DNA from: Eledone cirrhosa
Lineage: Eukaryota
Direction: 5' to 3'
DNA: 64,000 nucleotides
Assembly: GCA_964016885.1 (NCBI GenBank)
Contig: OZ024741.1
Location: forward strand, 351,850,001-351,914,000
Position numbers and translations under genes: made by a program. This document shows, piece after piece, positions 1,952 through 51,531 of the stretch (positions within the stretch are counted from its first letter, which is position 1; every line of letters begins with the position of its first letter). Below the pieces are notes generated by a model. It made no database searches, was not told where the DNA came from, and saw nothing but the letters and a program-made list of their open reading frames with translations.

Positions 1952-2228
1952 TATAATATTAAATAAATGGAAACTATATTTATAAAACCATATTTATTCT
2001 ATTATATATATTTCAAGGGTACCAAAACTTTGGTACGCCTCATCAGATAAAATACAAAGTTTGTTTTATAAATTTTGACATAACCAAGAAAAGATACTTT
2101 AACGGTTCACGTTTTTCTATCCAAGAAAAACTTGAACCGTTAAGGTATCTTTTTTGGTACCCTTCAAATATATATAATAGAATAAATATGGTTTTATAAA
2201 TATAGTTTCCATTTATTTAATATTATAT
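1952..2228. repeat. Foldback element with nested inverted repeats and a hammerhead in the left arm
   Basis: 1952-2027 is the near-perfect reverse complement of 2151-2228. An inner IR pairs AAAGATACTTTAACGGTTCACGTTTTTCT with AGAAAAACTTGAACCGTTAAGGTATCTTT. Confidence 0.85.
1999..2050 (-). ncRNA. Minimal type I hammerhead ribozyme motif
   Basis: Minus strand: TTAT CTGATGA GGCGTACCAAAG/TTTTGGTACCCTT GAAA TATATA TA^ATAG. Core intact, self-complementary stem III. Confidence 0.7.
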
Positions 2229-2359
2229 ATATATATATATTTTATCTATTTATTTGTTTTCCAGCCAAGGGGCTGAGGCCATGCTGGGCATTATATATAT
2301 TATATGTAGAATGAGGAAAATGTGAAGATGTAGATGTTAAAGAGTCCTTTATCAATTAG

Positions 2360-2432
2360 GCTGTGATACATATTTCAATGATGATCATGGTCATCGGATT
2401 ATTTAACCATTATCGTGATTTCATCAGATAGC
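2360..2432 (-). ncRNA. Hammerhead ribozyme motif, left arm of foldback
   Basis: GCTAT CTGATGA AATCACGATAATGGTT...ATCATCATT GAAA TATGTA TC^ACAGC. Confidence 0.65.
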
Positions 2433-2606
2433 AAAATTGATTAAAAAGTTGTTTCTGAGGTAATCGGGAGTACAAGGGAGCGGACTAAAAAAATTATTGT
2501 TGGAGAGCGGACAACCCCAGCAAAAACATAATAATTTTTTTAGTCCACTCTCTTGCACCCATGATTGCCTCGGAAATGTAATCTTTATTCAAAACTTTAT
2601 TCAGTT

Positions 2607-2679
2607 GCTGTCTGATGAAATCACAATAATGGTTAAATAATCAAATGACCATGACCATTATTGAAATATATATCAAGGC
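2607..2679 (+). ncRNA. Hammerhead ribozyme motif, right arm of foldback
   Basis: GCTGT CTGATGA aatcac AATAATGGT...ACCATTATT GAAA TATATA TC^AAGGC. The two-arm consensus restores stem I GCTGT/ACAGC. Confidence 0.65.
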
Positions 2680-4636
2680 CTGATTAAAAACGGATTTTTT
2701 AATATCTACAACTTTGTATTTTCCTCATCCTAATTATACTCCGTCATCTTTATTTTGAAGAAGTAACATGATGTTGAGTGCTTGAATTGAATTGCATCTG
2801 TGTCTATTGTATATATATATACACACGCACACACATACATAATGTGTGTGTGTACATTTGCATAAAGTTGTATATGTATAATATATAATAAGCTGAGACA
2901 TACCTCCTTCCCCTATATACACACATCAATGCTTTTATTTTCCAATCCCATCCATTAAGTAGAAGAAGCAAACCTATTCCATTCTGTTTCTGTCATTATA
3001 TCAAATATTGGAAATAGAAGCAAATGAGTCATCTCAGCCACCATCACAACCACCACCATCACCACCACCATAGTCACCCCAACAACCATTACAGCCACCA
3101 CTACCATAGCCATCATGACTACCACAACAATTACCAACCCCAACAGCATCCCAGTCATCATCCCCACCAATGCCACTACTACTATACTACTACTGCTGCT
3201 GTTTATCAGCATTGTCTTTAAAGTAAATTCCATTAAAAACAAAGCACACACACACAGACAACCATTATTTCATTCATAGCTAGTACACTCCTCTTTCAAG
3301 GCTTGATAATGCAAGGTAGATAACTCTAGCATAAAGCATACACACACACACACACACAAATACAAACACTATTATGAAGGAAATCAGATACATAACCTCT
3401 CTCTCTCTCACACACGCGCGCGCGCGCATATACAAGTTAGACCATGCAAACTAATATAATCCCATCTATATATTATGCAGACACACACACATTCATATTG
3501 TTTGATATACAAATATGCACCCTTAGAATGAAATTTACAGCTCACACCTAAGTAGGTTTAGCTCTCTTATGAGGTTGATGAAATGTAAGTTTTTTGGGTG
3601 CTTTGAGATAGGATCCTCGGTCTTATGAAAACCAATGTGAAATGAAGCATCTTATTCAAGAACAGAATGCACCACCTGGTCCAGAAATCAAACCCAAGAC
3701 CTTATGATCGTGACTCCAATAGTTTAACCACAAGGCCACCTTACATAAATGACAAAGGCATTAAAATGAATCCACAGATAATACATATGTTTTCAACATA
3801 AGAGCCTCCAGCTATAGAAATTATTCCAAAATATGGAACGTATGAACAAGATGTGGTTACCAGACCCTGTCTTGTGCTGGACCACGACAACCTGTCCAAC
3901 CCATACTAGCACGGAAAACTGATGTAAAATAATAAAGATGATTATCTGGAATACCTTCAAAAATAGGTCCACTCATACAATAGCTGACCTGGGACTAAAC
4001 AACAACAACATTTCAAAAATATCACCATGTGATTTACCCTCAGCTGTGGTGAAGTAGTATGGGACATAAAACACTGCACACAGCTTCCACCTAGAAGTAA
4101 TGACCCACTAACTGGGTAGGTGTGCTTTTACTCACCACAGCAACACCTGCAGAGAAGCAAAATATATACAAAGTAAAAAAATGTGACACAAATAGAACAA
4201 CAGAAATAAGGTGAAAAAAGAGACAGACAGGTGGTGTGGGATTAAATATAAGGTGGATAAAAGACATGGTGTACAAAATATACGTAAAAATAAAAAAAAG
4301 AAATTTTAAAAGTACAATGAAAATAGTTATGCTGAATGAAATGGAAATGAAACGATCTGATGGTTTTGGTTAAATACGTTAATCAGAGTAGAAGAAAAGG
4401 AATATCAATGAAAGGAGAAAACTGTTAGAATGATACCAATTTTTTAAAAAACATGTCTGTATCCACTGGCTATATCATGTGAAAATATATACATTCATGC
4501 ACCAAACAGCTTTCATGCTTTCCTAACACCCCTCAAACAGCATCAGATCCTTATGGTGCTATGCCAAGCAGGTTTTGAACAACTAAGCACAAATTCCCCT
4601 ATGCATCACCACCCCCACAATCAGGATTACTCTGTC

Positions 4637-4800
4637 AGGGGCAAGCATAGCTGTGCAGTTAAAGAGTTTGCTTTGCAACCATGTGGTTTGAGGTTCAGTC
4701 CCACTGCATGGCACCTTGGGCAAGTTTCTTCTATTATAGCTTCAGATTGACCAATGCCTTATGAATAGAATTTAGTAGACAGGAACTTTACTAAAGCCCA
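4637..4800 (+). mobile_element. Diverged tRNA-derived CORE-type SINE
   Basis: tRNA-like head with B-box GGTTCAGTCCC, then CACCTTGGGCAAGT core. A related copy lies at about 7495-7655 (+). Other diverged SINE remnants are at about 3600-3740, 6950-7180, 11380-11550 and 42960-43120 (all -). Confidence 0.65.
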
Positions 4801-6273
4801 CGATATATATGTGTGCGTGTTCATGATTGTGTTTATGTTCACTGTTTGTTTATGTCCCATAACTTAGTTGGATCAATATAATTGAATAAAAAAAACGCTT
4901 TAAAGCAGCCTGCAGTCTAATGACTGATACCAGTAAAAGAATTGTTTCTAGATTTCACTGCATATATTTAACAAAAAGGAAAGGAAGGGGCCGATCGGGA
5001 GATCAAACCAAGGAAACAATGTTTTCATTGGTCTCTCCATTACTGATACTATCTAGCAATCACAATTCCTGGTGGAAGAAAGGATCAGATCATCCACCCA
5101 CCCACTCCACTACCACCACCACCCTAAAAAACAAAAAAACAAAAAAAAACATGTTTCCTTTGGTCATTCCACTGCTGATACTATCTGTCAGTGGCAATGC
5201 CTGACAGAAGAAAGAAGTTGGTCATCAGATCAACCCCACCAAAAAACACGTTTCCTTTGGTCTTTCCATTGCTGATACCATCAATTAGTCACAACACCTG
5301 GCAGAAGTGTCACTGCTTTTTTGGTGAGAGTAGATAAGATTTGAACACAGAATGCTAAAAAAAGGGTTAAAGATCTACTATAATATAATAGCAGCAGTAG
5401 CTATGGCAAAGAATTCACTTTTATTCAAATATTAGATGCAGCATGCCGAAATGTAGCATACCTAAGTGTCTAACTCGCTACACCCCCATACATTCCATCA
5501 TGCAATGTATGTTTGTATGTGTATGTGGGGGTGGGGTGGGGTAGAGTAGAGCAGATAGGGGAGGAGAGCAAACATCACATCTTCCAGTCTACTGCAGAGG
5601 AGAAAGTTTAATGGTAAACATGTAACAAAGGTAAACATGGTGGACATATGGAATAACATGGAAAGCAGATTTAATAAAGTAAAGGCAACAAAATAGAAGA
5701 GAAATATATCAATCATGTGGCTAAGGTGTTAGGTTATCTGCTCACTGTGGGGTCAGAGGGATAGGCCAAGAGCTCAAATTGACCACTATTTTAATCATTT
5801 TGCTACCATCCCACCCAAAACCATACATTTTAAGGGGTCTCTATTTAAATTAAAATCTAACAATTTTTAAATAGGAAGTTTTTGTTAAGTTATATTACAA
5901 ATACCATGTTGATGATGAAATGATAATTTTAGTAAAATCCTTCAAATTCTTCATTATTTAATTGCAATACAGTGTATTTACAAATATGATGATGAAAGGG
6001 TTAGCTGAAGCTAAAGCACCAAATTCATCAGGCTGCATCTTGGATGTTTTAATGATAGTGGTCATATTTTTACAGTGGTAGGAGACAGAATTTCAAATTA
6101 GACCACACACAGCCTGAACAATTACTCTAACAATTCTGCTAATCCTCCACCATAAAGTGGTACTATATTTATCAACCCCATAATGATGAAAAGCAAAGTT
6201 GACCTCAGTGAGATTGGAACTCGAATATAGAGAGCTAGAACAAAATAGCACACTGCTAAACTGTAGATTTTGT

Positions 6274-6712
6274 TTAATTCTTTCATTACCATATCTCTAA
6301 TAAAATACACAGGCCAGTGCTTCAATTTATTTTGAAAATAATGAAATATTTGAAGGAATTTAGTAACAGAGCGTAACTTTTTCATTATCAAACTGATATT
6401 TGAAATTTAACATAACAAAAGATTCTTACATACAATTATGATCGGAGGTTTACATTTAAATATAAGTTGGATCTGGTTACATGAAATAAAACCACCCAAT
6501 TTAAAGGCCTCCTATTTAAATTAAAACCTTCCAAACATAATTTTATATAAGAATCAAATCATATGTTAAGTTACTATGTCAGTAATGAAATAATTAATAA
6601 TCCTAGTCAATCCCTCAAAATTCTTCATTAATTAATTGAAATTGTAAAATATGAGCAGTTTTGCATCATAAAACAAGGGTTGGTTTCAGTCACTTTGGTA
6701 TCAAAGGGTTAA
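6274..6712. mobile_element. TTAA-flanked MITE family (piggyBac-like ends), representative copy
   Basis: Ends TTAATTCTTTCATTACCATAT...TTTGGTATCAAAGGGTTAA. Related copies are at about 5791-6004, 26339-26545, 29645-29957, 31150-31340, 41160-41377 and 42430-42673. Confidence 0.6.
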
Positions 6713-7654
6713 TATGAAACATGCCAAGAGACAACTTGATTTGTTGGCCCTCAGCCAGATGGGTTTTTTTCTTCTTCACTTCAAATAAGTGAATCACATA
6801 AAATAGATGAAGATAAGAAAATCAGTCATTTTCATCTAATCAATAACACTGTATATGTTGGCCAAAGATACCCTTAACATGCTGTTAGACCTCAGTAGGT
6901 CGATCATTTCCTTAGACATGGGCAACTCTTAATGTGTTGTTGTTGGATCTCTGTAGGTCCAAGGACAAGTGTTCCAGTTGATCAATCAATGGTACAGTCT
7001 GGTTGTGGAATTATCATGTAAATGGTTGGGCATTCCAGAGCTATGTGTACTTTTAATGTAATCCTCAGGGAGATTCAGCATGACATAGTGCATGTGACAT
7101 GGCTGGCTTCCTTTGAATTAGATATAACTCATTTTTGTCTCAGTAGACAGGAGCAATGTGAAATAAGGTGCCTTGCTCAACTGATCAACATAGGTTGATA
7201 ATGTACTCTACATACATTCTAACTTTTTAGCTACCAACATAACATTAAGAAAAAATAATAACTATGATATGTATTGAAAAAATACAATAAAGGGAGAAAT
7301 ACATTGCACTTTAGATTGATTTTGCCACATTGGAAATTATTTGTTTTGCTATTTCTGATCTGATAAATAGATATGAAATGAATTCTTAAAATGTAAACAC
7401 ACACACACACACACACAGCCAGATAAACATGTGTCAGCATGGAAGGATGATTGTTTAATTATGATAAATAAAATTTGAACAAAAGTGAAGAGTGCAGGTA
7501 TGGCTATGTGGTTAAGGAGATCACTTCACAACCAAATTGTCTTGGGTTGAGTTCCACCACATAGCACCTTAGGCAAGTGTTTTCAACTATAGCCCCAAAT
7601 TGACCAATGCCATGGAAATGAAATTTGGTAGACAGAAAGTGTGCAGAAGCCTGT

Positions 7655-7697
<43 letters not shown>

Positions 7698-7699
<2 letters not shown>

Positions 7700-10179
7700 C
7701 ATCATCATCATCATCATCATCAGGTTTAGCGTCCGTGTTCCACGCTTGCATGGGTTTGGACGGGGGTTTTCCCACTTGAGGCAAGAGTGGTTGTCTTGCT
7801 CGCATAGGACTGTCTGGCGGGTTTTCTACAGTTGGATGCCCTTCCTAACACCAACCACATTTACAGTGTGGGGCTGGGAGGTTTTTACCGTGTTGCCTAC
7901 ACGGCCACATTACAGCGTGGACTGTCTGGCGGGTTTTCTACAGCTGGATGCCCTTCCTAACACCAACCACATTTACAGTGTGGGGCTGGGAGGTTTTTAC
8001 CGTGTTGCCTACACGGCCACATTTACAGCGTGGACTGTGTGTTTTTTGTCGTGACACCTACACGATCTCATTTGTTTCGGCCTGGATGTTGTGGGACCAA
8101 CATAACTTTACATTGAAGGGGCGGTGTGGATGGGGTGGAGGTGGTGGGACGGGGGTGTGTTTTGATAGAGATGCCTACTGACTGTAGTAGGTTTTTACTT
8201 TGTATTTAGGTGAGGCGGGTCTTCTCTATTACTGAGTACCGCCAAAAGTCTCGGTCCAGTGACATTGTCTTGGAGAGGTGTAAGTGTGTGAGGTCGGAAT
8301 TTATCAGCTCGTCCCATGTTTTTCTGGGTCTGCCTACTCCGTGGCTACCGTCTATCTTTATTGCCCTGCACTTTGTTATACAGCTGTCGTCTTTCATGCG
8401 CATCACGTGACCGTACCAACGTAGCCTTCTCTCGAGTAAACAACATCTGATCCCTCTTATTTCTAATTTTTTCCTTAGTTCGTTTATGCTTTGCCGTTCA
8501 CGTATATTACTATTGCACATCCAGCGGAGCATGCAAGCTTCGTTCCTCTCTAGTCTGCGTATATCCTCTGCACACAATGCCCAGGTCTCACTGCCATGCA
8601 GCATTGCTGTTCGTATGCAGGCATCGTATAACCTGCCTTTCATTTTTAGGGAGAACCCTCTAGCGGCTAATAGTGGTATAAGCTCTCTGAACTTTTTCCA
8701 TCCAGTTCTGACTCTAGCTACTGTACTTTCAGAGCACCCTCCCCCACTGCTGATTTTGTCACCCAGGTAACGGAAGCTGTCCACTATTTCTATAGAACCC
8801 TCTGCGCAGTTGAAGGAGCTAGTATTTTGTGGGCACTTGCTGCTACTTATTGCACCAGAGCACCGGCCACATGTAAAATCTATGTTCTTAGTTAGCTTAC
8901 CTGTGATCCCACTACATCTTTTATGCACCCATACTTTGCATTTGGGACATAAAATGGAGTTTCTACCTACGCCTTTCCTACACACTGAGCATGGCCATTT
9001 CCCAGATGGGACCGCCGCCTTATTTTCTTTCCTACAAACTAGAACTTTAGTCTTAGCCAGGTTAATTTTAAGGCCTTTTGATTCTAGGCCGTGCTTCCAT
9101 GTTTGGAACTTCTTCTCTAGTTCGGTCATTGATTCAGCTATGAGCGTTAGATCATCTGCGTATAGGAGTTCCCATGGGCAGCCGGTCTTGAACTCCTCTG
9201 TTATAGCCTGAAGGGCAATAATAAATAGTAAGGGGCTAAGAACAGAGCCCTGATGGACACCAACTTTTACGCTAAACTCTTCACTATATTCGTTGTTAAT
9301 TCTAACCTTACTGACTGTTTCTTTATACATGGCTTGTATAGCTCTCACAAGCCATTCGTCAACACCTAGTTTTCTAAGAGACCACCAGATAATGGAACGG
9401 GGGACTCTGTCGAAGGCTTTCTCCAAGTCGACGAAAGCTAAGTATAGGGGTTTACTTTTAGCTAGGTACTTCTCCTGTAGTTGTCGTACAATGAAAAGAG
9501 CGTCTGTGGTACTTTTGCCTGACACAAACCCGAACTGCATTTCATCTAGATCAATTCTCTCTCTGATTAGTTGCGCTATTACTTTTTCCGTGACCTTCAT
9601 GACCTGGTCGATTAATTTAATGCCTCTATAGTTACTCCTATCTAGGGCATCTCCTTTTCCCTTATAGCAGTTAACGATGATGCTGCTATGCCAGACCTTC
9701 GGAACAACCCCATTCTGTACGACTTGGTTAACTATCCGGGTGACCATGGTGTGTCCCACCGAACCAGATGCCTTCAGCATCTCAGCAACTATTTCCGAAG
9801 GACCAGCCGCCTTACCCGTCTTCATATCTTTGATTGCCTTGCTTATTGTACTACCCTGGACTAACACTGCTGGTCCCTCTATTGGGTCGATGTGGGGGAG
9901 ACTGTCTTTCTCCCATTTGTTCTCCTCATTTAGAAGCCTTTCGTAGTGACACTTCCAAGCTACCTTCTTATCAGCGTCGGTGATGGCAAGTGTGCCATCA
10001 TCGTTAAGTACACACTTCTCCCCGACAATATCACGGTTTTCCTTGACACATTGCCTGGCAATCCTGAACACCTCACGTTTTTGGTCCTCACGTTGTAGAA
10101 CATGCTTGAACTTTCTTTCCTCTGCTTCCCTTCTTGCAAAGTACACTTGTCTCCTAGCTTCCCTCCTGGCCACTTGATA
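7698..10179 (-). mobile_element. 5'-truncated RTE-clade LINE, subfamily A; open RT ORF 8206-10194
   Basis: RT motifs [47 protein letters not shown] and RRLRWYGHV. (GAT)n 3' tail at 7698-7721. Both ends abut (TA)n. Confidence 0.95.
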
Positions 10180-10304
10180 TATATATATAACCACTATATA
10201 TATATAACCAACCTGCGCACTTCGTCGAGTGCTCCAGCCTGCATACTGAGGTGTTGGTATACAACCAACATAAACTCAAAATCTATATATATATATATAT
10301 ATAT

Positions 10305-10392
10305 ATATTAAAATAACAGATTAAAGTTTAAGCAAAGAATCGCTGCTTAAGGGTGAAAGCAGCGATTCTTTTTAATCTGTTATTTTAATAAA
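10305..10392. repeat. Short near-perfect hairpin embedded between TA tracts
   Basis: TATTAAAATAACAGATTAAA..AAAGAATCGCTGCTT pairs with AAGCAGCGATTCTTT TTAATCTGTTATTTTAATA. Confidence 0.8.
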
Positions 10393-10478
10393 TATTTGCT
10401 CTATGGTTCTTATATATTTGATATATATTTATCCTTATCGAGCCCTCTTTGGATTTTAGTCTTCAAATTTATTATTAT

Positions 10479-10547
<69 letters not shown>

Positions 10548-10548
10548 G

Positions 10549-10886
10549 ATGGTGCATGGCTTAGTGGTGAGAGCATTGGGCTTGCAATTGGGAGGTTGTG
10601 TGCTTGATTCTCTTCTCGGACCAGGTGATGCATTGTATCCTTGAGCAAGACACTTTAGTTCATGCTGCTCCAGTTTACTCAGCTGCAGAAATGAGTTATG
10701 ATGTCACAGATGCCAAGCTGTATCGGCCATTGCCTTTCCCTGGGACAACACCGGTGGCGTGGAGGGAGGAGACTGGTATGCATGGGAAACTACTGGTCTT
10801 CCACAAACAACCTTGCCTGGACATGTGCCTCAGAGGGGAACTTTCTAGGTGCAAATCCCTGGTCATTCATGACTGAAGGGGGTCTT
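10549..10886 (+). mobile_element. tRNA-derived CORE-type SINE
   Basis: A-box TGGCTTAGTGG, degenerate B-box, core CCTTGAGCAAGACACTT...CCAGTTTACTCAGCTG, flanked by (TA)n. A related copy is at about 12885-13130. Confidence 0.8.
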
Positions 10887-12175: not shown

Positions 12176-12255
<80 letters not shown>

Positions 12256-13674: not shown

Positions 13675-13732
<58 letters not shown>

Positions 13733-13968: not shown

Positions 13969-14001
<33 letters not shown>

Positions 14002-14014
14002 TGTATATATATAT

Positions 14015-15327
14015 ATTGTTATGCTTTGGGAGGGTCATGTTGCCAATAAGAAACACACGCACCAGTTGCTTTCATTCCAATTTATTATAAATTAAATTTA
14101 TAAATTTAAGAATTTATTAATTTCCGGTTGGTTGGTTGGTTGGTTGGTTGGTTCCATAACCGGCCGGTTGTTCATATATTGTCAAAGTTCTTTCGTCACA
14201 CATTCTGTGATCTCTTCAGTGACTGGGAATTCTTTTCTTTGTTTTTGTGCCTCTCCTTTGTTCTGTCCTACGCCATCTAGTTTTTGTGTGTGTTGTGTGC
14301 TTAGTTTGCGCATGTGTTACATCCGGGTGTCTGTGTGTGTTTATATTTGTTTATTTACATGTTACTGGTTGGTTGTTTGTTCTATGTGTGTGTGTGTGTT
14401 TTCATTTTGTCGTTAATTGTAAGTTGTGATGTTGCTATTCCATTCATGTTTTCTATTTAATTTTGGTTGGAGTTCATTTATGTTTATTGCCTCTGTGATT
14501 TGTCTAAACATTGCGTCTTTTCTGTGTGTAGATTCTATTTTTATTTCTATGTTCTTTAATTTGTCCTTATGTTCTATTTTAGCATGTTGGGGGAGTATTG
14601 ATGATTCTTTTTTATCTTGAAGGTCTCGCCAGTGTTCATTTAACCGTTTTCCTATACTACGAGCTGTCTCACCTATGTACACTATATTCTTATCTTTACA
14701 TTGTCCTTCAGTACATCTTATGCTATATACTACATTTCTAGTTTTACAGTTAATATGGGGGCTTAGTTTACAGATTATGCATTTCTTATCTATACAGGGA
14801 GGTCTTTGAAAAGGGTATGTTTTGCGAATAAGTGTTTTTATGGAGGTACCTGGTCTTTCTTCTATCTTAATATTAAGTTTATGTTTATTTAGGGCCCTTC
14901 TAAATTTGTAAGCTAATTCACCTCTAGGGGTTGTATTGATGAACATTACACTCTGGTATTTATTGCTATCATACCATGAGTTTATTCTATTAACCTTATA
15001 ACTAGTTCTTTCTATTCTATTCCAAAATTTGCTCCTATACAAGGGGCAGGTCCCATTTGTATCATTATTTACCATTTTTTCCCATTTGGTTCTGGCTCCC
15101 CTATATACTCTGATGTTATCTTTCTGATTGTAACCAGAGAACTGCATACGGTGGATGAAGTGTTGTATGTGTCTCTCTAGTTCTTTGGGGTTGCACATGC
15201 GGGACACGTTTCTCATCACCCGTACCAAATCCGTAATCAGTATGTTGATTTTGGTGTGATCTGAAACAGCTGAGTTTCGGTGGATCAGATATTTGGAAGT
15301 CATGGGTTTGGCATAATGGGAATGGAG
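14015..15327 (-). mobile_element. Penelope-like element (Nematis-like, tentative): RT C-terminus, Cys linker and GIY-YIG; left arm of a foldback
   Basis: ORF 14413-15303 with CIDKKCIIC linker, NVVYSIRC..C..VYIGETARSIGKRLNEH, QHAKIEH, RQITEA and LNRKHEW. 3' UTR carries an HHR. Confidence 0.92.
14181..14223 (-). ncRNA. Minimal hammerhead in PLE 3' region
   Basis: GTCA CTGAAGA GATCACA GAATG TGTGAC GAAA GAACTT^TGAC. Confidence 0.75.
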
Positions 15328-16449
15328 AACAGTCAGGAATTAGAGAAAAACACCATGGAAAGCATCCAGCAAATAGCTAACTCCATCCACCAGAGTATTA
15401 GTGTTACTATAGACTACCCAAGCAAACACCCCAACCATCGATTACCTGTACTAGACACAGAGCTCTGGTTAGAAACCATTAATAACAAAAAACAAATCCT
15501 CCATTCCCATTATGCCAAACCCATGACTTCCAAATATCTGATCCACCGAAACTCTAATATTAAGATAGTAGAAAGACCAGGTACCTCCATAAAAACACTT
15601 ATTAGCAATACATCACCCTTTTCAAAGACCTCCCTGTATAGATAAGAAATGCATAATCTGTAAACTAAGCCCCCATATTAACTGTAAAACTAGAAATGTA
15701 ATATATAGCATAAGATGTACTGAAGGACAATGTAAAGATAAGAATAAAGTGTACATAGGTGAGACAGCTCGTAGTATAGGAAAACGGTTAAATGAACACT
15801 GGCGAGAACTTCAAGATAAAAAAGAATCATCAATACTCCACCAACATGCTAAAATAGAACATAAGGGCAAATTAGAGAACATAGAAATAAAAATAGAATC
15901 TACACACAGAAAAGACGCAATGTTTAGACAAATCACAGAGGCAATAAACATAAATGAACTCCAACCAAAATTAAATAGAAAACATGAATGGAATAGCAAC
16001 ATCACAACTTACAATTAAGGACAAAATGAAAACACACACACTCACACATAGAACAAACAACCAACCAGTAACATGTAAATAAACAAATATAAACACACAC
16101 AGATACTCGGATGTAACACATGCGCAAACTAACCACGCAACACACACAAAAACAAGACGGCGTAGGACAGAACAAAGAAGAGGCACAAAAACAAAGAAAA
16201 GAATCCCCAGTCACTGAAGAGGTCACAGAATGTGTGACGAAAGAACTTTGACAATATATGAACAACCGTCCGGTTATGGAACCAACCAACCAACCAACCG
16301 GAAATTTATAAATTTAATTTATAATAAATTGGAATGAAAGCAACTGGTGCGTGTGTTTCTTATTGGTAACATGACCCTCCCAAAGCATAACAATATTGGT
16401 TTCAACACACATTTTCAGATAAAGAATCTTGCTAAACAAATTCAGAAAC

Positions 16450-16452
<3 letters not shown>
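15328..16452 (+). mobile_element. Same PLE family in inverted orientation (right arm), with internal deletion and frameshift
   Basis: RT motif RLPVLDTELW joined directly to NIKIVERPG. GIY-YIG ORF at 15749-16018. 3' end ...ATTCAGAAACG abuts (AT)n. Confidence 0.92.
16210..16252 (+). ncRNA. Minimal hammerhead in PLE 3' region
   Basis: GTCA CTGAAGA G GTCACA gaatg TGTGAC GAAA GAACTT^TGAC. Stems I and II are perfect. Confidence 0.8.
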
Positions 16453-16493
<41 letters not shown>

Positions 16494-16509: not shown

Positions 16510-16745
16510 TATATATCCAACTGAATAAGCACATGATATTTTTTTTCTCCAAAATTTTTTTTCTCATTTTCCCTGTTCCTTCCTCTTCTATTTAACTTCT
16601 ATTTCTAACTATCTTCTGATTGAGGACTAGTGTCCGAAACCTTACGACTCTCTTCCTGCTATTTCAAGTGTTAAACTAATATATTTCTTCCGTGTACTGT
16701 GCCATTTGTTTTGTTATTTTTTGTAATTTTTGTTTACCTTTTACA
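16510..16745 (+). mobile_element. Solo Neptune-type PLE 3' terminal repeat with degenerate hammerhead
   Basis: Similar to about 48945-49125. Motif TCTT CTGATTG AGGAC TAGT GTCC GAAAC at 16612-16640. Confidence 0.6.
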
Positions 16746-30249: not shown

Positions 30250-31120
30250 ATAAGGATTTCTAACATTTAACACAAAACCAGAAGCATGAAAGGCAAAGTT
30301 GACCTCGACAGGATTTGAACTCAGAACAAAGGGTTGTAACTAAATGCTGCAAAGTATTTTGTCTGACACTAATGGTTCTGCCAATCCACCACCCTTTAAA
30401 TGATTTCTGTTTTAGGCACAATGCCAGAAACTGGGGGGGGGGGGGGTTAATTAAATTCACACCAGTACTTGACTGGTACTTTATTTTATCAACTTCAGAA
30501 AGATGGAAAGCAAAGTTAACTTAAAAATACTGTTACTTATTTGTCCAATGCTCTAATGACTCTCCCAATCTACTACCCTCCACTTGATGGTAAATAATAA
30601 TTGTTTCTATTTTTTGGCACAAGGCTAGCAATTACCCAGTACATTACTGGTACTTTATTTTATCGACCCCGTAAGGATGAAAGGCAAAGTTAACCTCGGC
30701 GGGATTTGAACTCAGATCATAAAGGGACGTAACTCTATGCTTCAAAGCATGGTGTCCAACTCTCTACCGATACTGCCAATCCATGGTAAATAATGATTTC
30801 TACTTTTGGCACAAGGCCAGCAATTATCCCAGTGTTTTACTGGTACTTTATTTTATCGACTCCGTAAGGATGAAAGGCAAAGTTAATCTTGGCGGGATTT
30901 GAACTCAGACTGTAAAGGACCCTGGTAAATAATAATGGTTTCTTATATAGGCACAAGGCCAGTAATTTTTGGAAGGGGAAGTTGATTAAATTGACCCCAG
31001 TGCGTGATTGGTACTTTATTTTATCGACCCCGTAATAAAGATCATAAAGGGACGTAACTCTATGTTTCAAAGCATGGTGTCCGACTCTCTACTGATACTG
31101 CCAATCCATGGTAAATAATA
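30250..31120 (-). mobile_element. Cluster of tandem and partial MetaSINE-like copies
   Basis: Repeated GGTACTTTATTTTATCGACCCCGTAAGGATGAAAGGCAAAGTTAACCTCGGCGGGATTTGAACTC. Confidence 0.85.
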
Positions 31121-31665
31121 ATGACAGCTTCAAACCATACACCACTAGCTTAGCCCATTTGATACCAAACTGTTGGAAACTTCCTGGTTTTATAATAAAA
31201 AGCTGTATATTTCTCTTTACGATTAAAATTTGATGTAAAAAAACCTTTGTAAAGTTATATTACTGAATCTCTCTAAATTTTTCATTATCTTCAAAATTAT
31301 TTTACAATTAATGAGTCTTTTATTAAACCTGAAAGGTTTAAACTGACTCAAGTACTTGACTGAATGTAGCATTGGCGAATGTTAAAGAAGTTTACTTTGC
31401 AAAAATAAGGTTCAAGGTTCACTGCTACTGTTAAATATCTTTTACCATAGTCTTTGGTTGACCACAAGCAGTGTGTTTCATTAGAAATATGTTAATACCA
31501 GCTTTAAAAAGTCAGAAGGAGACATTGCATAATGGATAATATAATCCCAGATACATTATGTCTGAATAAAAGATGGGATTGATAACTAGTGGATGTCTGA
31601 ATTGACAAGAATCAATTCAGTATAGAAAATACTATAGCAATAACTAGGATAGGCTTTTGGTCAGA

Positions 31666-31704
<39 letters not shown>

Positions 31705-31711
31705 TGTGTCT

Positions 31712-31743
<32 letters not shown>

Positions 31744-32049
31744 ATTTGTTTAGCTGAGTGTGTGCATGTATGGATATGTATTTGGGAAGATGTGTACTTT
31801 CATGTGTGTGTTCATCTATTTGTATAAATGTGTGTGTTGCAAGAACAATATTGGTTATTAATTGATAGGAGAAAAAGGGAGGAATAGAAAAAGAGAGAGG
31901 GAGGGAATATAAAGAGAGAGAGAGAGAGGATGTTTAAAAAAAGGGGGAGGAGGAGGGAATAGAGAGAGAGTGGGAGAGGGAAAGAATGGAAAGGGAGAAA
32001 GGGAGTCAATAGAAAGAGAGGGAAAGCTGTCTTTTTATTATTATTTTCT

Positions 32050-32232
32050 TGTGGATTGGCAGTATTGGTAGAGGGTGGGACGCCATGCTTTGATGCATCG
32101 AGTTACGGCCCTTGCCATTCTGAGTTCAAATCCCGCCGAGGTTAACTTTGCCTTTCATCCTTACGGGATCGATAAAATAAAGTACCAGTAATGTACTGGT
32201 TAATTGCTGGCCTTGTGCCAAAAGTAGAAACA
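32050..32232 (+). mobile_element. MetaSINE-like copy
   Basis: A- and B-boxes plus Meta-like core, flanked by an ATTATTTTCTT direct repeat (probable TSD). Confidence 0.85.
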
Positions 32233-32869
32233 ATTATTTTCTTTTCAAGGTGAAAGAAATTCTAGTTTATTATGGGAAGGGCAGTGGTTGTGTAGGTGAT
32301 GGCTATAGTGGTGGTGGTTATGTGTAAGTGGTGGCTGCAGTTGTGGTAGTATACAAGGTGGCAGTGGTGGTGACTGTAGTGAGAGTATGATGGTAGACAT
32401 GGTGGGAGTGATGTATAGAAAGATGGTGTGGAGCTGGGGGACCAGAGGAAACAGAACCATTATTTTCTTGCTTGGACATGTCTGAAGAGGTAAAAGGATT
32501 TATGTGTGAGCGTGTGAGTGTCTATGCATCTCTTTATATTTTTCTCTCTCTCTTTCTTGTGCATACACACACACACACACATGAAACTAGGCAGTACAAT
32601 TTTAGTTAATCTCAGCATGATATTAAATCACTAAGAGTGTATAATGACTCAATAGATAATCAGTGCTATGACTTTATGATGAAGAGAATACTGTAGAAAA
32701 AAGAAAATCAGAGAAAGCAGACTGCAATTATACCATATCAAATACGTTGTGATGTAGTGTGTTGCAATTGCTCTTTGTTGTAAATGTTTGTTGAGAGTGT
32801 TGTATTTGTATGACCAATGTTGCAATTGGTTTCATGAAGTTTACTACTTATATTTTTGCAGATGATTAA

Positions 32870-33365
32870 TAATAATGTTTATATTTTGGCACAAGGCCAG
32901 CAATTATCCCAGTACATTACTGGTACTTTATTTTATCGATACCATAAGGATGAAAGGCAAAGTTAACCTCGGCGGGATTTGAACTCAGATTGTAAAGGGA
33001 CGTAACTATGCTAGAAAGCATGGCGTCCAACCCTCTACCGATTCTGCCAATTCACCGCCAATAATAATAATAATTGTTTCTACTTTTGGCACAAGGCCAG
33101 CAATTATCACAGTACATTACTAGTACTTTATTTTATCGACCCCGTAAGGATGAAAGGCAAAGTTAACCTCGGCGGGATTTGTATAATGTAGAAAAAAGAA
33201 AATCGGGGAAAGCGGACTGCAATCATACCATATCAAATACGTTGTGATGTAGTGTGTAATAATAATGGTTTCTGACAAGGCCAGCAGTTTTGGAGAGGGG
33301 AAAATCAATTAAATCAACCCCAGTGCATTACTTTGCTGTTTTATTTTATCAATCCCGTAAAGATG
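32870..33365 (-). mobile_element. Tandem MetaSINE-like copies (one full, two partial)
   Basis: Same core on the minus strand. The head GGCGGTGAATTGGCAGAATCGG is at about 33040-33060. Confidence 0.85.
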
Positions 33366-37358: not shown

Positions 37359-37418
<60 letters not shown>

Positions 37419-38276: not shown

Positions 38277-38334
38277 TTCATTCTGATGATTGAAAGCAAA
38301 ATTTTTGCTTTTAAGAAACCACTGGTAAATGGAA
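38277..38334 (+). ncRNA. Intact minimal type I hammerhead in a solo PLE terminal repeat (about 38222-38365)
   Basis: TTCATT CTGATGA TTGAAAGCAAAA/TTTTGCTTTTAA GAAA CCA C TGG TA^AATGGA. Nearly identical to 56490-56623. Confidence 0.85.
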
Positions 38335-38381
38335 TAATTGCCTTATGTTGTTTATTACATAACTATATATATATATATATA

Positions 38382-41887: not shown

Positions 41888-41974
<87 letters not shown>

Positions 41975-44737: not shown

Positions 44738-44768
<31 letters not shown>

Positions 44769-44934
44769 CCACTAACACAACCACCACCACCACAAATATA
44801 ATCATCACCACCACTACTACTACTATTGTCACTGTAGTTAGTGTAACATGCTAACTACAACTACTACCAATAACAACAAAAACAATGCTAATAATGGTAT
44901 TAACGAAATGACAACAACAATGATAATAATAATA

Positions 44935-45335
44935 GGGTTGTGGATTAGCAGTATCGGTAGAGCATCGGACAACATGCTTTATGGAACAGAATTATGGCCC
45001 TTTATTTTCTGAATTCAAATCCCACCAAGGTTAGTTTTGCCTTTCATCCTTATGGGGTCGATGAAATAAAGCACCAGTAATACACTAGGGTGGATTTAAT
45101 CAACTTTCCTCTTCTCTTCAAATTACTGGTCTTGTGCCAAATGTAGAAACATTATTGTATCGGTAGAGGGTCGGTCGCCATGCTTTGACGCATAGAGTTA
45201 CGGCCCTTGCCATTCTGAGTTCAAATCCCGCTGAGGTTAACTTTACCTTTCATCCTTATGGGGTCGATAAAATAAAGTACCAGTAATGTACTGGTTAATT
45301 GCTGGCCTTGTGCCAATAGTAGAAACAATTATTAT
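44935..45335 (+). mobile_element. Two tandem MetaSINE-like copies
   Basis: B-boxes and Meta-like cores. Other partial copies are at about 41535-41628 (+) and 45826-45936 (-). Confidence 0.85.
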
Positions 45336-45774
45336 TGTTATAACAACAACCACAATAAACTTATCAGTATTTCACAAGGACATGACTGATTGAAATTTAT
45401 GACCTACCCCACACCAAAAAAATCATACATATAAAATTTTTTTAAATGAGTAAAACATAATCAAATAAAATTAAATAAAAATTTTAAAAATCAATGAAGT
45501 GAAAAATTATAATTAAAATATAAAAATATAAAAATTAAAAATCGAGTAAAATATAATTAAATAAAAATTTAAAAAAAACAACGAAATATGAAACATCAAT
45601 GAAAGATAATTTCCAATATTATTGGATGATGATAAATGGAAACATTTAGAAAATTTTGGAAAATAAAGGTGAATTAAAGAGAAAACAAATGAATAGTAGC
45701 AGAAAAAGATTACATATATATATGATGATGATGATGATGATATGATGTACATATATATGATGTATATATATATA

Positions 45775-45831
<57 letters not shown>

Positions 45832-45935
45832 TCTACTTTTTGGCACAAGGCCAGCAATTATCCAGTGTATTACTGGTACTTTATTTTATCGACCCCGTAA
45901 GGATGAAAGGCAAAGTCAACCTCGGCGGGATTTGA

Positions 45936-45966
<31 letters not shown>

Positions 45967-45971
45967 ATGAT

Positions 45972-46005
<34 letters not shown>

Positions 46006-46011
46006 GATGTA

Positions 46012-46060
<49 letters not shown>

Positions 46061-46652
46061 CAAGTAAGTATATGATATCTATTGGCGTTAGGAAATCAAG
46101 CTAAAATCAGTCCTGTGTGAGAGAAACAGTCTTTTGACCTGATCTCTCACAACAGTGACAGCCCGTCCTACCCATGCTAGTGTGGAAAATGGGAGTTAAA
46201 TGATTATGATGATATGATGTGTATCTAAATATCTATATGTTGTGTATATACACATGGTACATGTATGAATATAATGTATATATACTCCTATATATGCTGA
46301 GAAAAATTTAGCAAAAAAAAAAAAATTGAAGATAAAATAGGGAGTCAACTTATATACAAAATCCAATATTCTGATAATTTTCACCACTTAAAAATTCTAT
46401 GTAAATTAGGTGTTAAAATATTTTAAGTTTGGAGGCGAATATTACACTTTTGGGGTGAATATTACACTGGTTTTTACACACACACACATACACTCACACA
46501 TATATATATACACACACACACACATATCTATATATACACACACACACATATCGATATATATATATACATACACACACATATCTATATATATATACATACA
46601 CACACACATATCTATATATATATATACACATATCTATATATATACACACACA

Positions 46653-47923
46653 TGTATGCTGATGACCTCGCACTCATAGCTGAATCTATGGTAGAACTAG
46701 AGAATAAATTCCAAACCTGGAAGCAGGGACTAGAGAGAAAGGGCCTCAAAGTCAACATGACAAAGACTAAGGTCCTTGTAAGTAGACGAGAAAACAGAAC
46801 CCAGATCCCCTCAGGGAAATGGCCTTGCTCAGTATGTAGGAAAGGTGTAGGTAGGAACTCCATTCTCTGCCCCAAATGCAAACAATGGGTACACAAGAGA
46901 TGTAGCGGGATCTCAGGAAGCTTAATTAAGAATGTAGGATTCACATGCAGCAGCTGTGCTGAAACAGCAAGCAAACAGCCACAGGAAACAAGTACCACCA
47001 ATCTCTGGGAGGGCCCTGTAGAAACAGTAGACAGCTTCTGCTACCTAGGTGACCGAATTAGCAACGGAGGTGGGTGCTCAGAAAGTACAATAACTAGGGT
47101 AAGAACGGGATGGAAGAAGTTTAGGGAACTACTACCACTGCTAGCTGCAAAAGGCTTCTCCCTCAGAATGAAAGGCAGACTGTATGATGCGTGTATCCGA
47201 ACAGCGATGTTGCATGGTAGTGAGACCTGGGCGCTGAAGGTGGAAGACTTACGTAGATTAGAGAGAAACGAAGCCTGCATGCTCCGATGGATGTGTAACA
47301 GTAATATACGTGAACGACAAAGCATAAAGGAATTGAGAGAGAGACTGAGCATAAGAGGAATCAAATGCTGCGTGCAGGAGAGGCGGTTACGCTGGTATGG
47401 ACATGTGATGCGTATGAAGGATGACAGCTGCATAAAAAGGTGCAGAGCACTAGAAGTTGATGGAAACCGCGGAGTGGGGAGACCCAAGATGACTTGGGAT
47501 GAGGTGATAAAAGCCGACCTTACCCAACTACACCTCTCAAAGTCAATGACACACGACCGTGACTTCTGGCGTCACGCAGTAATACAGGGTACCCGACCTC
47601 CCATGGGTACATGCTGAAGCATATAAACAATATGCCCCCACTCCCCCCACCGCAAGGTGGTCGTGGAGGTGCCACGGCAAAAAAGCACCCAGCCCACACT
47701 GTAAAGTGGACATGTAGGCGCTACGAAAAAGCACCCAGCACTCACTGTAAATGAGGTTGGTGTTAGGAAGGGCATCCAGCTGTAGAAATCAAGCCAGATC
47801 AGTTCCTGTATGAGCAAGGCATGGTCAGCCGACCAGACACTGCCCACAACAGGACAACCTGTCTAACCCATGCTAGCGTGGAAGAACGGACGTAAAACGG
47901 TGATGATGATGATGATGATGATG
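46653..47923 (+). mobile_element. RTE subfamily B copy truncated at YADD; nearly identical to 23534-24800
   Basis: ORF 46652-47617 differs from the 22-kb copy by only about 2 aa, and the 3' UTR and tail match. Confidence 0.95.
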
Positions 47924-48039
47924 ACACACACATCTATATATATACACACACACACATCTCTCTATATATATACATACACACATATCTCTATATACACACA
48001 CATATATATATTTATATATATACATATATCTATATATAT

Positions 48040-49125
48040 GACCCCGTCACTTCTCGCTTTTTTTCCAACCCACCCATTACTGCTTTTAAGTGCGCCCGCA
48101 ACCTCTGCAACATCCTGGTTCGCAGTTCCTTTTCGTCCTCTCCCACGACTCAACCCGGCTCTCATCCTTGTTCCCGTTCCCGCTGCAACACTTGTCCCTT
48201 TATTTCCACCCTCCCCACTTTTACAGGCCCTAACAGGTTTTTCCGTATCCGCTATTCCTTCACCAATCAACCACGTTGTCTATGCCCTCCGGTGTTCTCT
48301 TTGCGGGTCTTTATATATCGGACAAATGGGACGCCGTATGGCAGACCGTTTTGCTGAACATTTGAGGAACATACGACTCGGTTTGGATACTCCTGTCGCC
48401 CGTCATTTCTGTTCTCCTGGTCATTTTTCCCTATATGTTTCAGTTTTTGGTGTCCTTTTACATCATGGATCACAGACCTCGCGCACCAGGACTGAACAAA
48501 GTCTGATTCATCACCTTGAGTCCTATTCCCCTCTTGGACTCAATTCACCTCCCCAATTTCTTTAATAGCCTGTCCATTATCACATCCCTAGATTCCTATC
48601 GCTTTCTCTTGATCATTAGCAGCTTCTCTTACAACTAATACATGCCGACTATATATACTCACTCCACTTTTCCCTTCACTGCTCTGTATACACACATACA
48701 CACCCTTATATTAACATACTTTTGCTCATAGCTTTGTACTTACATGCACACATACTCTTTTACTCACATATACACACACTTTTCTTCTTAGCTTCGTACG
48801 GACGTATAACATACACACAAACACATGCTTTCGCACGTGCACAAGTATAGCACTTTTTACAAAACGTTTTTTTTTCCACTTTTCTAAAAAATAAATCATA
48901 CACAAAATGCCAGCACCAACAGTTTTGCAAGAGATGTCAACATGAATGAACCTGTTATTTTTATCTAAAGACATTTTTTCCAATTCCATCCCCTCAATCT
49001 ATCTTATTTCTCATTCTATCTTCTGATGAAGGACTAGCATCCCAAACGTTAAGACTCTATTCCTGCTATATCAAGCGTTAACCTAATATATCCCTTCCAT
49101 ATACTATACCGATTGTGTTATTTCT
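48040..49125 (+). mobile_element. Neptune-like Penelope element 3' fragment (Cys linker, GIY-YIG, terminal repeat)
   Basis: HPCSRSRCNTCP (frameshifted), HVVYALRCSLCGSLYIGQ..RFAEH, PVARHF..H, EQSLIHHL and PLGLN. Degenerate HHR TCTT CTGATGA AGGA..TCC CAAAC GTT AAGA at 49019-49054. Confidence 0.88.
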
Positions 49126-49164
49126 TTTTACATACATATATATATATATGTATGTAAATATTTA

Positions 49165-50500
49165 CCCTTTCCCACGAATGTTGGCAAATGCCCAAAACTC
49201 TGAGTTGAAACCATCAATGTAAGCACAATGAAAGGAACAGCAGAAGAAATCGTAGAGATGCTAGAGCGAAAGGAAATTGATGTATGCTGTGTGCAAGAGA
49301 CTAGATGGAGAGGAGGGTCTGCTAGAGTCCTTATAGGCAAAAGGTAGGTGGGAAATGACAATGGGATGGGTGGTCTAGGTATCCTACTAGCTGAGAAATG
49401 GGTAGATAAGGTAATCACAGTGAACAGGGTGAATGCAAGAATCATTAAACTCAGACTAGTCCTGAATAAAACAATTACCACAATAATATCAGCTTACGCA
49501 CCCCAATCGGGGTTGCCAGATGAACTTAAGGATAGGTTTTACGAGTCCCTAATGCACACTACTGCTCTAACAAACGACAATGACTTCCTAATCATTGCAG
49601 GAGATTTTAACGGACACGTAGGTAAACACCGTGACAGCTTCTATAGAGTCCATGGAGGCCACGGATTTGGCACAAGAAATGAAGAAGGCTTCAGGCTTCT
49701 AGAATTCTGCGACGCCAATGACATGTCGATATGTAACACAAATTTCAAAAAACCAGACAACCACCTGATCACCTATAGATCAGGGGAGCATTCTAGTCAG
49801 ATAGATTTTATCCTCATCAGAGGACGTGACAGATGGACGGTCATAAACACAAAAGTCTTCCCAGGTGAGGAATGTACCCCCCAACATAACTTAGTTGTCA
49901 GCGACCTCATTGTCAAAATTAGACGAACTTGGAAACAGAAGGCAACCTGGAGAAGAAAGATCTGGAAGCTGAAAGACCCCTCAGCCAGTAACAGATTTAA
50001 AGATATTTTACTCGACACCTATGACAGTAAAGAAGAACAGATATAGACATTCAATGTAGAAGAACACTGGGAGTTCCTAAAAAATAACTTACTAAAGGTG
50101 ACGGATGAGATCTGTGGATGGAGTAAGACCACAGGCAGGAGGAGAGTGACTTGGTGGTGGAACAATAAGGTGGATGAGGCAGTTAAGGCCAAGAGACAGG
50201 CATGGAAAGAATGGAAAAACAGGGGAAGCAGGGTACGTTACATAGAGACCAGGAGGGAAGCTAGGTGACAAGTATACTTAACTAGAAGGGAAGCGGAGGA
50301 TAGAAAATTCAAGCATGTCTTGCAACGTGAGGACCAGAAACAGGAGGTGTTCAAGATTGCAAGGCAGTGTGTCAGAGAGAATTGTGATGTCATTGGAGAG
50401 AAGTGTATCCGGAATGATAAAGGTGAGCTTGCCCTCACAAGTGCCGAGAATAAAGATGCGTGGAAGAGCCATTATGAAAGATTACTAAATGAGGAGAATG
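49165..50500 (+). pseudogene. RTE ORF N-terminal half: AP endonuclease domain, interrupted at 50500
   Basis: TINVSTM, DVCCVQETRW, ISAYAPQ, IIAGDFNGHVG, QIDFIL and QHNLVV. Overlaps in sequence with the 5' part of the 22-kb copy. Confidence 0.93.
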
Positions 50501-50663
50501 TATATATATATATATACATACATGCACACATATATATATATGTACATATGGATTCACCGAACATTTATTATAATGCTCGGTGTTTTTGTAAACAAACAAC
50601 CCGAATTAAGCCATACAGTGTCTAGCAACCATCGTTGCTCATTTGTTCAACACTGCCAAAGGA

Positions 50664-50706
50664 ACGCTGTACTAGTTTCAAGCTTATTATCTATCGTCAG
50701 CAACGT
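50664..50706 (-). ncRNA. Minimal hammerhead, tandem copy 1
   Basis: ACGTTG CTGACGA TAGATAATAAGCTT GAAA CTAG TA^CAGCGT. Confidence 0.75.
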
Positions 50707-50963
50707 ATACCTTCCTGCCAGATGGTTGAACGTCTGAAAGTATATACTTTCCTTATGCATATTAACAACCGAGCAGCCTAATTTGCATATCGAGTGAGTT
50801 AATCGGCCGGGGTACCGAAAACGATAAATGGAAAAATATTTAAGTAACAGCCGTACTAAGAGTGAGAAATGAAATTTTGTTTCATTTTTTCCGTTTATCG
50901 TTTTCGGTACCTCGGCCGATTAACTCAACCATCGTTGCTCATTTGTTCAACACTGACAAAGGA

Positions 50964-51006
50964 ACGCTGTACTAGTTTCAAGCTTATTATCTATCGTCAG
51001 CAACGT
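50964..51006 (-). ncRNA. Minimal hammerhead, tandem copy 2
   Basis: Identical motif 300 bp from copy 1. Confidence 0.75.
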
Positions 51007-51315
51007 ATACCTTCCTGCCAGATGGTTGAACGTCTGAAAGTATATACTTTCCTTATGCATATTAACGGCTGAGCAGCCTAATTTGCAATTCGAGTGAGTT
51101 AATCGGCCGGGGTACCGAAAACGATAAACGGGAAAATATTTAAGTAACAGCCGTACTAAGAGGGAGAAATGAAATTTCGTTTCATTTTTTCCGTTTATCG
51201 TTTTCGGTACCCCGGCCGATTAACTCACTCGATATGCAAATTAGGCTGCTCAGCCGTTAATATGCATAAAGAAAGTATATACTTTCAGACGTTCAACCAT
51301 CTGGCAGGAAGGTAT

Positions 51316-51358
51316 ACATTGCTGATGATAGCTAATAAGCTTGAAACTAGTACAGCGT
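51316..51358 (+). ncRNA. Minimal hammerhead, inverted arm
   Basis: ACATTG CTGATGA T AGCT aata AGCT T GAAA CTAG TA^CAGCGT. Palindromic stem III ACTAGT. Confidence 0.78.
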
Positions 51359-51531
51359 ATCTTTGTCAGTGTTGAACAAATGAGCAACGATGGTTGCTAG
51401 ACACTGTACGGCTTAATTCGGGTTGTTTGTTTACAAACACACCGAGCATTATAATAAATGTTCGGTGAATCCATACATACATATATATATGTGTGCATGT
51501 ATGCATATATACTTATATATATATATAATAT

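Follow-up and report, generated by a model that had tools for sequence, protein, structure and literature searches.

Penelope-like elements (PLEs) with an endonuclease (EN+) are known to insert together with an inverted, 5'-truncated copy, and parts of two reports (PMC3846280, PMC8557442) put on record head-to-head inverted pseudo-long terminal repeats (pseudo-LTRs), an optional tail, palindromes at the seam and solo pseudo-LTRs. The window analysed here, a 64,000-nucleotide stretch of the Eledone cirrhosa genome (assembly GCA_964016885.1, contig OZ024741.1, positions 351,850,001 to 351,914,000), holds four inverted repeats with outward-facing hammerhead motifs, designated A (1952-2227), B (2301-2738), C (14013-16452) and D (50498-51524). 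These resemble the EN+ PLEs of both reports in the inverted 5'-truncated copy, the tail at one end, the hammerhead in the pseudo-LTR, the microsatellite target, the solo pseudo-LTRs and the initiator-like TCACT within the pseudo-LTR. An earlier interpretation made from the letters of the window alone, the sequence-only reading, had named this layout as known, and it is indeed in print. Tails are approximately 56-100 nt here against 30-40 nt in the published elements, and the parts of the reports drawn on do not feature thousands of insertions made of two pseudo-LTRs only, 5' ends piled at one site, or counts of the one-tail rule and of arm-length symmetry such as those given below.

Three further systems bear on the comparison. 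The Hydra clade (PMC8557442, in part) shares with relatives of the parent of A one sole open reading frame (ORF), a C-terminal GIY-YIG domain, the motifs DKT, CxCX5C, CxxC and CxH, a hammerhead and (TA)n tracts. Among loci fetched from the genome (L numbers), the intact relatives L290, L231 and L233 carry DKT, the CxCX5C linker, and CxxC plus CxH in the C-terminal GIY-YIG domain, with a single Cys in the core (no CCHH). They depart from the clade in having RWR instead of RWK and units of about 3.5, 4.0 and 7 kb instead of <3 kb, in being very young and abundant, and in that some hammerheads are non-canonical; Hydra type is here a label assigned by motifs as in section 11 of that report. Retrozymes have been proposed as non-autonomous PLE partners, many of them homologous to pseudo-LTRs, in portions of PMC7229834 and bioRxiv 10.64898/2026.07.22.740005. 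Animal non-LTR retrozymes share with D a non-coding monomer, a type I hammerhead and tandem repeats; in those portions direct tandems define the class, and two-armed insertions and tails are not described. Unlike retrozymes, A and B are without short-monomer tandems in the loci seen. The Poseidon PAc protein, as characterised in vitro in part of PMC11167929, cuts and extends both strands at an AT-rich target and starts reverse transcription, at a stem-loop, from two internal sites that define the tail, with hammerhead cleavage not required and a dimer predicted; it belongs to another clade, and inverted insertions are left unexplained in that part. Both the layout and the connection between retrozymes and PLEs have been published before. 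The literature surveyed, with subscription journals and Repbase entries outside its scope, yielded no account of mass-produced doubled pseudo-LTR palindromes or of a counted one-tail rule; the new elements are the link of A to two back-to-back Hydra-type pseudo-LTRs, with a likely transcription start as their limit, and counts relevant to how PLEs form inverted insertions.

The four repeats belong to dispersed families sited in (TA)n, and their layout is the known head-to-head form of PLE insertion, occurring thousands of times in this genome, with no novel class involved. They very probably originate from PLE machinery, supporting the proposal of the sequence-only reading that one PLE-type process made all four. 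Our overall reading, given a probability of about 0.68, is that they are head-to-head insertions into (TA)n by a PLE reverse transcriptase (RT)-endonuclease, with both cut ends primed on one RNA. Comparison of the window with itself by BLAST recovered A, B and D at the above positions and C as 14013-14880 against 15549-16396, confirming with slightly adjusted coordinates the four repeats first proposed. In each of them the left arm reads on the minus strand and the right arm on the plus strand, with the outward hammerheads (or the 3' half of one) found as described, by strict scan in A and C and by inspection in B and D. The earlier statement that the four share no evident sequence held insofar as BLAST gave no significant similarity among them, while A and B have in common a tail motif and the type of stem III. 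The arm positions given earlier stood, and the tails of A and B had been left out (Table 1).

The orientation bias extends genome-wide, as had been predicted. The host genome is 3.0 Gb with abundant TA microsatellites, and first-look searches gave 2,017 dispersed candidates for A, 1,234 for B and 2,428 for D. In 130 evenly spaced 10-kb stretches (1.3 Mb), arm matches numbered 4 for A (strict), 4 for B, 42 for C and 24 for D, and a broadened hammerhead scan, run without its own shuffle control, returned 125 matches, with 42 head-to-head against 7 tail-to-tail pairs (28 against 7 loci) and 47 solo motifs. The 15-nt core of the hammerhead clan of A (clan A) occurs 61,560 times genome-wide, with 11 occurrences of the reversed control, forming 9,355 head-to-head pairs (40-400 nt) against 754 tail-to-tail pairs (140-500 nt). 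Many of the latter, among the matches listed, bring together members of different subfamilies, which is what insertions lying side by side in a shared TA tract should give. Young coding PLEs, in two 150-match tables counted by eye, were paired within 10 kb as minus-then-plus 19 and 17 times and never as plus-then-minus. Conversely, the 3' ends of an RTE long interspersed nuclear element (LINE), used as a control, exhibited no head-to-head bias, with 4 head-to-head, 9 tail-to-tail and 16 direct pairs across 64 matches. Amplified long reads are known to yield palindromes as an artefact, and the 300-bp internal duplication of D may be a later event; nevertheless, the idea that the inversions are later rearrangements or products of assembly or amplification is highly improbable once arms differing by 1-17% and ending at two fixed, family-specific points are set beside an RTE LINE free of bias in the same assembly.

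Hammerheads were sought as type I motifs, defined by the core CUGANGA / GAAA / UH plus stems I-III. Six motifs in the window satisfied the strict descriptor, one in the left arm of A, one in each arm of C and those at 38283, 56545 and 57717, against two in 30 shuffles combined. The decayed window copies of B and D gave no strict match, their core, stem I and palindromic stem III being recognised by inspection, and D carries an extra minus-strand copy 300 bp beyond its left core. In a relaxed scan the D family consensus passes; the B consensus fails, with core, 5-bp stem I and palindromic stem III apparent by inspection only. An Rfam scan of the window returned 103 matches at E<=1, with the hammerhead family among none of them. 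In 12 hand-picked clan-A motifs, 96.9% of cells are paired and both partners vary in seven of nine pairs of stem II, an outcome seen in 0 of 500 shuffles, under a structure drawn by the author from the same 12 sequences. The window motifs of A and C and the D consensus have the features of type I hammerheads and are putative ribozymes; minimal motifs with palindromic stem III may require dimers or protein, according to parts of PMC7229834 and PMC11167929. As a side observation, hammerhead motifs occur about once per 10-13 kb of sampled genome (L070-L149, L240-L289), in at least 17 sequence clusters. A few arms (L025-L027) start at the predicted hammerhead cut, an observation with no background count for comparison.

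These motifs weigh on the possibility that the repeats are miniature inverted-repeat transposable elements (MITEs) or foldback DNA transposons with hammerhead-like sequence arising by chance. As with MITEs, they are short, non-coding, palindromic, sited in TA tracts and present in thousands of copies. The first 800 kb sampled, however, held 64 hammerhead matches in 17 clusters, against 4, 3, 0, 0 and 0 in five shuffles. Termini are asymmetric, with one-sided tails, 5'-truncated single arms and tandems, lacking symmetric terminal inverted repeats, and A matches the pseudo-LTR of a retrotransposon, giving it a retrotransposon parent. No fixed target-site duplication (TSD) is visible at 24 A loci, most ends abutting TA tracts, so that a TA duplication there is neither visible nor excludable. 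Neither a cognate transposase nor fixed-length TSDs, the findings that the sequence-only reading had named as contrary to its view, were encountered. The MITE explanation is already largely refuted and its residual probability is minimal; annotators meeting a short palindrome in a TA tract should look for a hammerhead and a tail on one side before applying a MITE label.

Tails, arm lengths and shared variants carry the mechanistic argument. The A, B and D loci are top BLAST matches to the window copies, a sample biased by rank. Each family has two fixed 3' ends, spaced about 56 nt apart in C and D, 80 nt in B and 100 nt in A. Exactly one tail is present in 19 of 20 two-armed A insertions, 4 of 5 of B, 13 of 14 of C and 5 of 5 in sister families of A (from which 3 of 8 'A2' pairs, being cross-matches to family A, had been dropped beforehand). 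D shows one tail in 13 of 17, none in three and an unclear state in one. Pooled, 54 of 61 insertions have one tail, and two tails occur once. Across the 20 A insertions the tail-less arm reaches further 5' in 5, the tailed arm in 10, both equally in 4, with one insertion lacking a tail; across 13 one-tailed D insertions the corresponding numbers are 6, 5 and about equal in 2, and the excess of the tail-less D arm ranges from several hundred bases to kilobases. Non-consensus bases are shared between arms of the same insertion far more often than between arms of different insertions (A 10/22 against 43/452, C 67/107 against 168/906, D 16/32 against 15/276, B 20/45 against 61/278), a three- to nine-fold excess in A, C and D and a twofold one in B. 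The tail motif ACTCC...GTYGAGTGCT, searched as a pattern, has 17 matches in 864 kb, 13 of them directly downstream of a hammerhead. The tail hairpin folds no better than shuffles in B (z 0.35) and weakly better in A (z -1.8).

Twin priming is probably the main route to these structures. The PLE reverse transcriptase-endonuclease would prime the two ends of a DNA cut on a single RNA molecule, each end starting at one of two neighbouring start sites and thereby leaving one tail per insertion. Microhomology would then serve to join the two copies at their 5' ends, in some cases following a short snap-back of about 50 nt. The template of D may be multimeric or circular. The hammerheads face outward because they are located near the 3' end of the copied stretch. 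Independent choice of start site at each end predicts one tail in half of the insertions, against the 54 of 61 found. The same counts, namely one tail, either arm longer and shared variants, separate twin priming from self-priming, in which one cDNA or antisense template snaps back and copies itself out to the tail-less end, the interpretation given for rotifer Penelope in part of PMC3846280. The latter accounts for palindromes at the seam, for short inverted pieces that start at the 5' end of the long arm (A in the window, C copies L130 and L271) and for private variants common to both arms. A second arm copied from tail-primed cDNA cannot exceed its template, however, so the tailed arm should always reach furthest, an expectation that fails for 5 of the 20 A insertions and for 6 of the 13 D insertions; moreover, a tail cannot come from copying a tail-less cDNA, and the seam piece begins upstream of the start of the long arm in window C and in L127. 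Fold-back priming, proposed by the sequence-only reading, is thus unlikely as a general mechanism and applies at most to the seam.

Several points weigh against twin priming on one RNA. The inverted pieces of 45-55 nt at the 5' end of the long arm, noted above, fit self-priming. Top and bottom strands showed no start-site difference in vitro for PAc (PMC11167929), so the coupling of one site to each end is not shown there. Later deletions near the palindrome centre could mimic uneven arms, shared variants could stem from gene conversion or from a single source locus that dominates, and the counts could be skewed because the A, B and D loci were taken by rank. Additionally, no coding parent has emerged for B or D in the searches described below, and the evidence for a fixed 5' end in clan A has limits given with it.

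Repeat A reads as the doubled pseudo-LTR of a coding Hydra-type PLE, an assignment resting on sequence comparison. Hydra-type ORFs, old and young, lie about 1.5 kb upstream of A-like hammerheads in the two-armed insertions L076 and L285. In an element with an intact 738-aa ORF (L290, L291), of which 150 scored copies are identical across 141 residues, the pseudo-LTR matches A at 80% identity over 177 nt and the tail immediately precedes the ORF. A pattern for the tail of A with the second motif behind it gave six matches, five of them continuing into an RT ORF. The coding copy L293 is 91.5% identical over 271 columns to the arm plus tail of A and 97% identical over 264 nt to the A consensus; stop codons occur in its ORF, which shares 67.5% identity with that of L290 across 468 aligned N-terminal residues. 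The match of L293 to the consensus, together with its RT ORF, indicates that A corresponds to two pseudo-LTRs back to back. No short tandem monomers were found among 25 A loci. Separately, L231 (G000:C1:437201500-437211400), L230 and L072 are very young Hydra-type PLEs with intact ORFs of 784 and 830 aa and copies 97-100% identical; their hammerheads are non-canonical, the departures being a U3-A8 core and 100-115 nt inserted in stem II. The genome holds very young, intact Hydra-type PLEs, of a clade without mechanistic work in the parts of the literature cited.

Short clan-A palindromes have a fixed 5' end, turning at or before C(T/C)ATCC, usually after CA, 70-91 nt upstream of the core, a site also present in long copies. 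About 90% of them end within twice the distance to this initiator-like site. Gaps of 190-400 nt account for only 901 of the 9,355 head-to-head pairs, and among the first 50 listed pairs, inspected by eye, the gap is 150-189 nt in 10, 190-229 nt in none and longer in two. Since the drop in pair spacing rests on two coarse bins and those 50 pairs, a steep truncation curve could contribute to it. Parts of two reports describe an initiator-like TCACT in rotifer pseudo-LTRs (PMC3846280) and Penelope transcripts that begin inside the upstream pseudo-LTR (PMC2377424). It is more likely than not that the fixed end marks a transcription start, clan-A transcription then beginning at the initiator-like site 70-90 nt upstream of the hammerhead. 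A transcript from the upstream pseudo-LTR, copied from the internal start sites, would yield the start-to-tail segment only, doubled to a palindrome of about 340 bp. An octamer, ATTTGCAT, lies about 55 nt upstream of the initiator-like site in the parent of A (L292, L293, L019), and ATGCAAAT lies inside the D monomer. Promoters of snRNA type are known from newt hammerhead satellites. As ATTTGCAT occurs upstream of the site in only 2 of 12 rows, most rows being truncated copies without the upstream part, no promoter type is claimed.

The remaining families differ in kind. C appears from its motifs to be a Neptune-like coding PLE with both arms 5'-truncated: both carry GIY-YIG (PF01541) with an upstream CX4CxxC linker and two Cys in the core, and its relatives carry the RT core, the RVT_1 score of L095 falling below the cut-off. 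Its seam piece has a 56-nt inverse overlap with the start of the left arm, followed by a jump of about 390 nt. D is, by its sequence, a putative non-coding tandem non-LTR retrozyme with PLE-type ends and a type I hammerhead in each monomer. Its 431-bp monomer forms direct tandems of 431-bp period in L014/L015 and arrays in L119, and the family occurs more commonly as single arms, as tandems and as uneven two-armed insertions whose arms exceed one monomer. In the duplicated seam of the window copy, 50626-50927 and 50926-51227 are 96% identical. Four sequencing runs, two labelled as other organisms, all contained D-like pieces, none spanning the element, and are uninformative on expression. In L236 (G000:C4:349902000-349911900), D copies are embedded in a larger tandem repeat whose period is about 2.25 kb.

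B forms the terminal part of a non-coding unit, about 1.4 kb long and present in partial tandem, with no short-monomer tandem, and its copies comprise 34 single arms against 5 two-armed insertions. Its likeness to Hydra-type elements is confined to the tail motif and the second copy of that motif after the tail. No coding parent was found in the 20 loci fetched out of 45 matches to the body of B; tblastn of three Hydra-type N-termini against it gave a best E of 4.8, and nhmmer with body and pseudo-LTR profiles found no match in 16 PLE-bearing loci. Likewise, D showed no link to the Hydra-type, Neptune-like and Penelope/Poseidon-like loci examined. The suggested linking of each arm family to a coding PLE therefore succeeded for A (through L293) and C, with no such PLE found for B and D, which are likely non-coding families mobilised in trans by PLE enzymes.

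Predicted folding leads to the last alternative, in which the small palindromes would be ribozyme hairpin elements that propagate by themselves, being transcribed and copied in full and retained as sources of double-stranded RNA. Transcripts reading through the repeats are predicted to form long hairpins, the clan-A stem II covaries, and A, with its many first-look candidates, resembles a family with a fixed centre. Yet the side of the tail varies among A copies, nearly all of which have a different seam, as expected of fresh events and not of one palindromic master; the A arm equals a coding element's pseudo-LTR, in which the covariation of the hammerhead could have arisen. The predicted folds of B and D pair the hammerhead core with the antisense arm, and the 3' half of the A motif has a complementary arm. 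With the core so paired, a working ribozyme within the whole palindrome is unlikely on these models, and the alternative as a whole is very improbable. The class of ribozyme hairpin elements proposed for the three small repeats is not supported, these being a putative doubled pseudo-LTR (A), a mostly single-armed family (B) and a presumed tandem retrozyme (D).

The accompanying claim of perfect double-stranded RNA was overstated. Arms are 98.7% (76 nt), 83%, 97.5% and 95.4% identical in A, B, C and D, respectively, and the longest exact duplexes measure 62, 17, 143 and 58 bp. Changes from the family consensus, counted as A>G to T>C, stand at 49:36 in A, 111:144 in B, 66:53 in D and 191:48 in C, with per-base values in C of 0.99 and 0.60 (193 A and 80 T positions). 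No hyper-edited copy that would mark an ADAR footprint stood out among the A-D retrocopies. A bolder form of the twin-priming account holds that PLE dimers prime both cut ends on one RNA under a strict rule of one start site per end, and that RNA from the upstream pseudo-LTR gives a promoter-less start-to-tail palindrome. This form is tentative; if true, tens of thousands of hairpin loci of 150-400 bp, each made in one step, would record the start site of each PLE family, and would act like inverted Alu pairs as ready-made ADAR or Dicer substrates on read-through.

Table 1. Coordinates of the parts of repeats A to D in the window (UTR, untranslated region)
Repeat	Feature	Position	Strand	Basis
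A	PLE tail, on one side only, separating the family's two 3' ends, motif ACTCC...GTYGAGTGCT	1865..1951	-	
A	Full arm, putative pseudo-LTR of a Hydra-type PLE, initiator-like site to tail-less end	1952..2121	-	
A	Complete type I hammerhead motif in which stem I has 8 bp and stem III is palindromic	1995..2046	-	strict scan
A	Short inverted copy of the arm's 5' end, giving central hairpin 2083-2158	2119..2158	+	
A	Second arm, tail-less; 3' half of hammerhead only, GAAA replaced by CAAA	2152..2227	+	
B	Left arm, tail-less	2301..2498	-	
B	Right arm, hammerhead with long stem II	2505..2730	+	
B	One-sided tail, motif as in tail of A	about 2731..2811	+	
B	Hammerhead cores	2427-2421 and 2612-2618	minus and plus	inspection
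C	Tail-less arm: RT thumb, CX4CxxC linker, GIY-YIG (frame 15339-14416), 3' UTR, hammerhead	14013..15327	-	
C	Seam piece of RT coding sequence	15325..15554	+	
C	Right arm: GIY-YIG domain, 3' UTR, hammerhead	15549..16396	+	
C	One-sided tail, ~56 nt, then (TA)n	16397..16452	+	
C	Hammerheads	14219-14181 and 16214-16252	minus and plus	strict scan
D	Left arm of putative 431-bp retrozyme monomer	50498..50836	-	
D	Duplicated seam made up of a plus-strand piece (50836-50927) and a minus-strand piece (50926-51136), the latter carrying a third hammerhead	50836..51136	.	
D	Right arm; both ends of the window copy without tail	51136..51523	+	
D	Hammerhead cores	50700-50694 and 51322-51328	minus and plus	inspection

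Other features of the window touch the same families. A tailed single arm of family C lies at 57459-58220 (minus), with a hammerhead at 57717-57678 and an RTE LINE interrupting its 5' side. A decayed Hydra-type PLE ORF occupies 53500-56700 (plus), its long, microsatellite-rich 3' UTR ending in the hammerhead at 56545, of which a second copy is present at 38283-38334. Past the tail of C, a decayed hammerhead-like motif at 16619-16660 is probably the end of a Penelope/Poseidon-type element. Local inverted repeats at 30282-33181 and 45013-45937 involve another abundant short repeat, probably copies of a tRNA-related short interspersed nuclear element. At 58230-59059, the 3' end of an RTE LINE forms an inverted repeat (95% identity, 836 columns) with its 3' ends facing inward, opposite to the PLE geometry.

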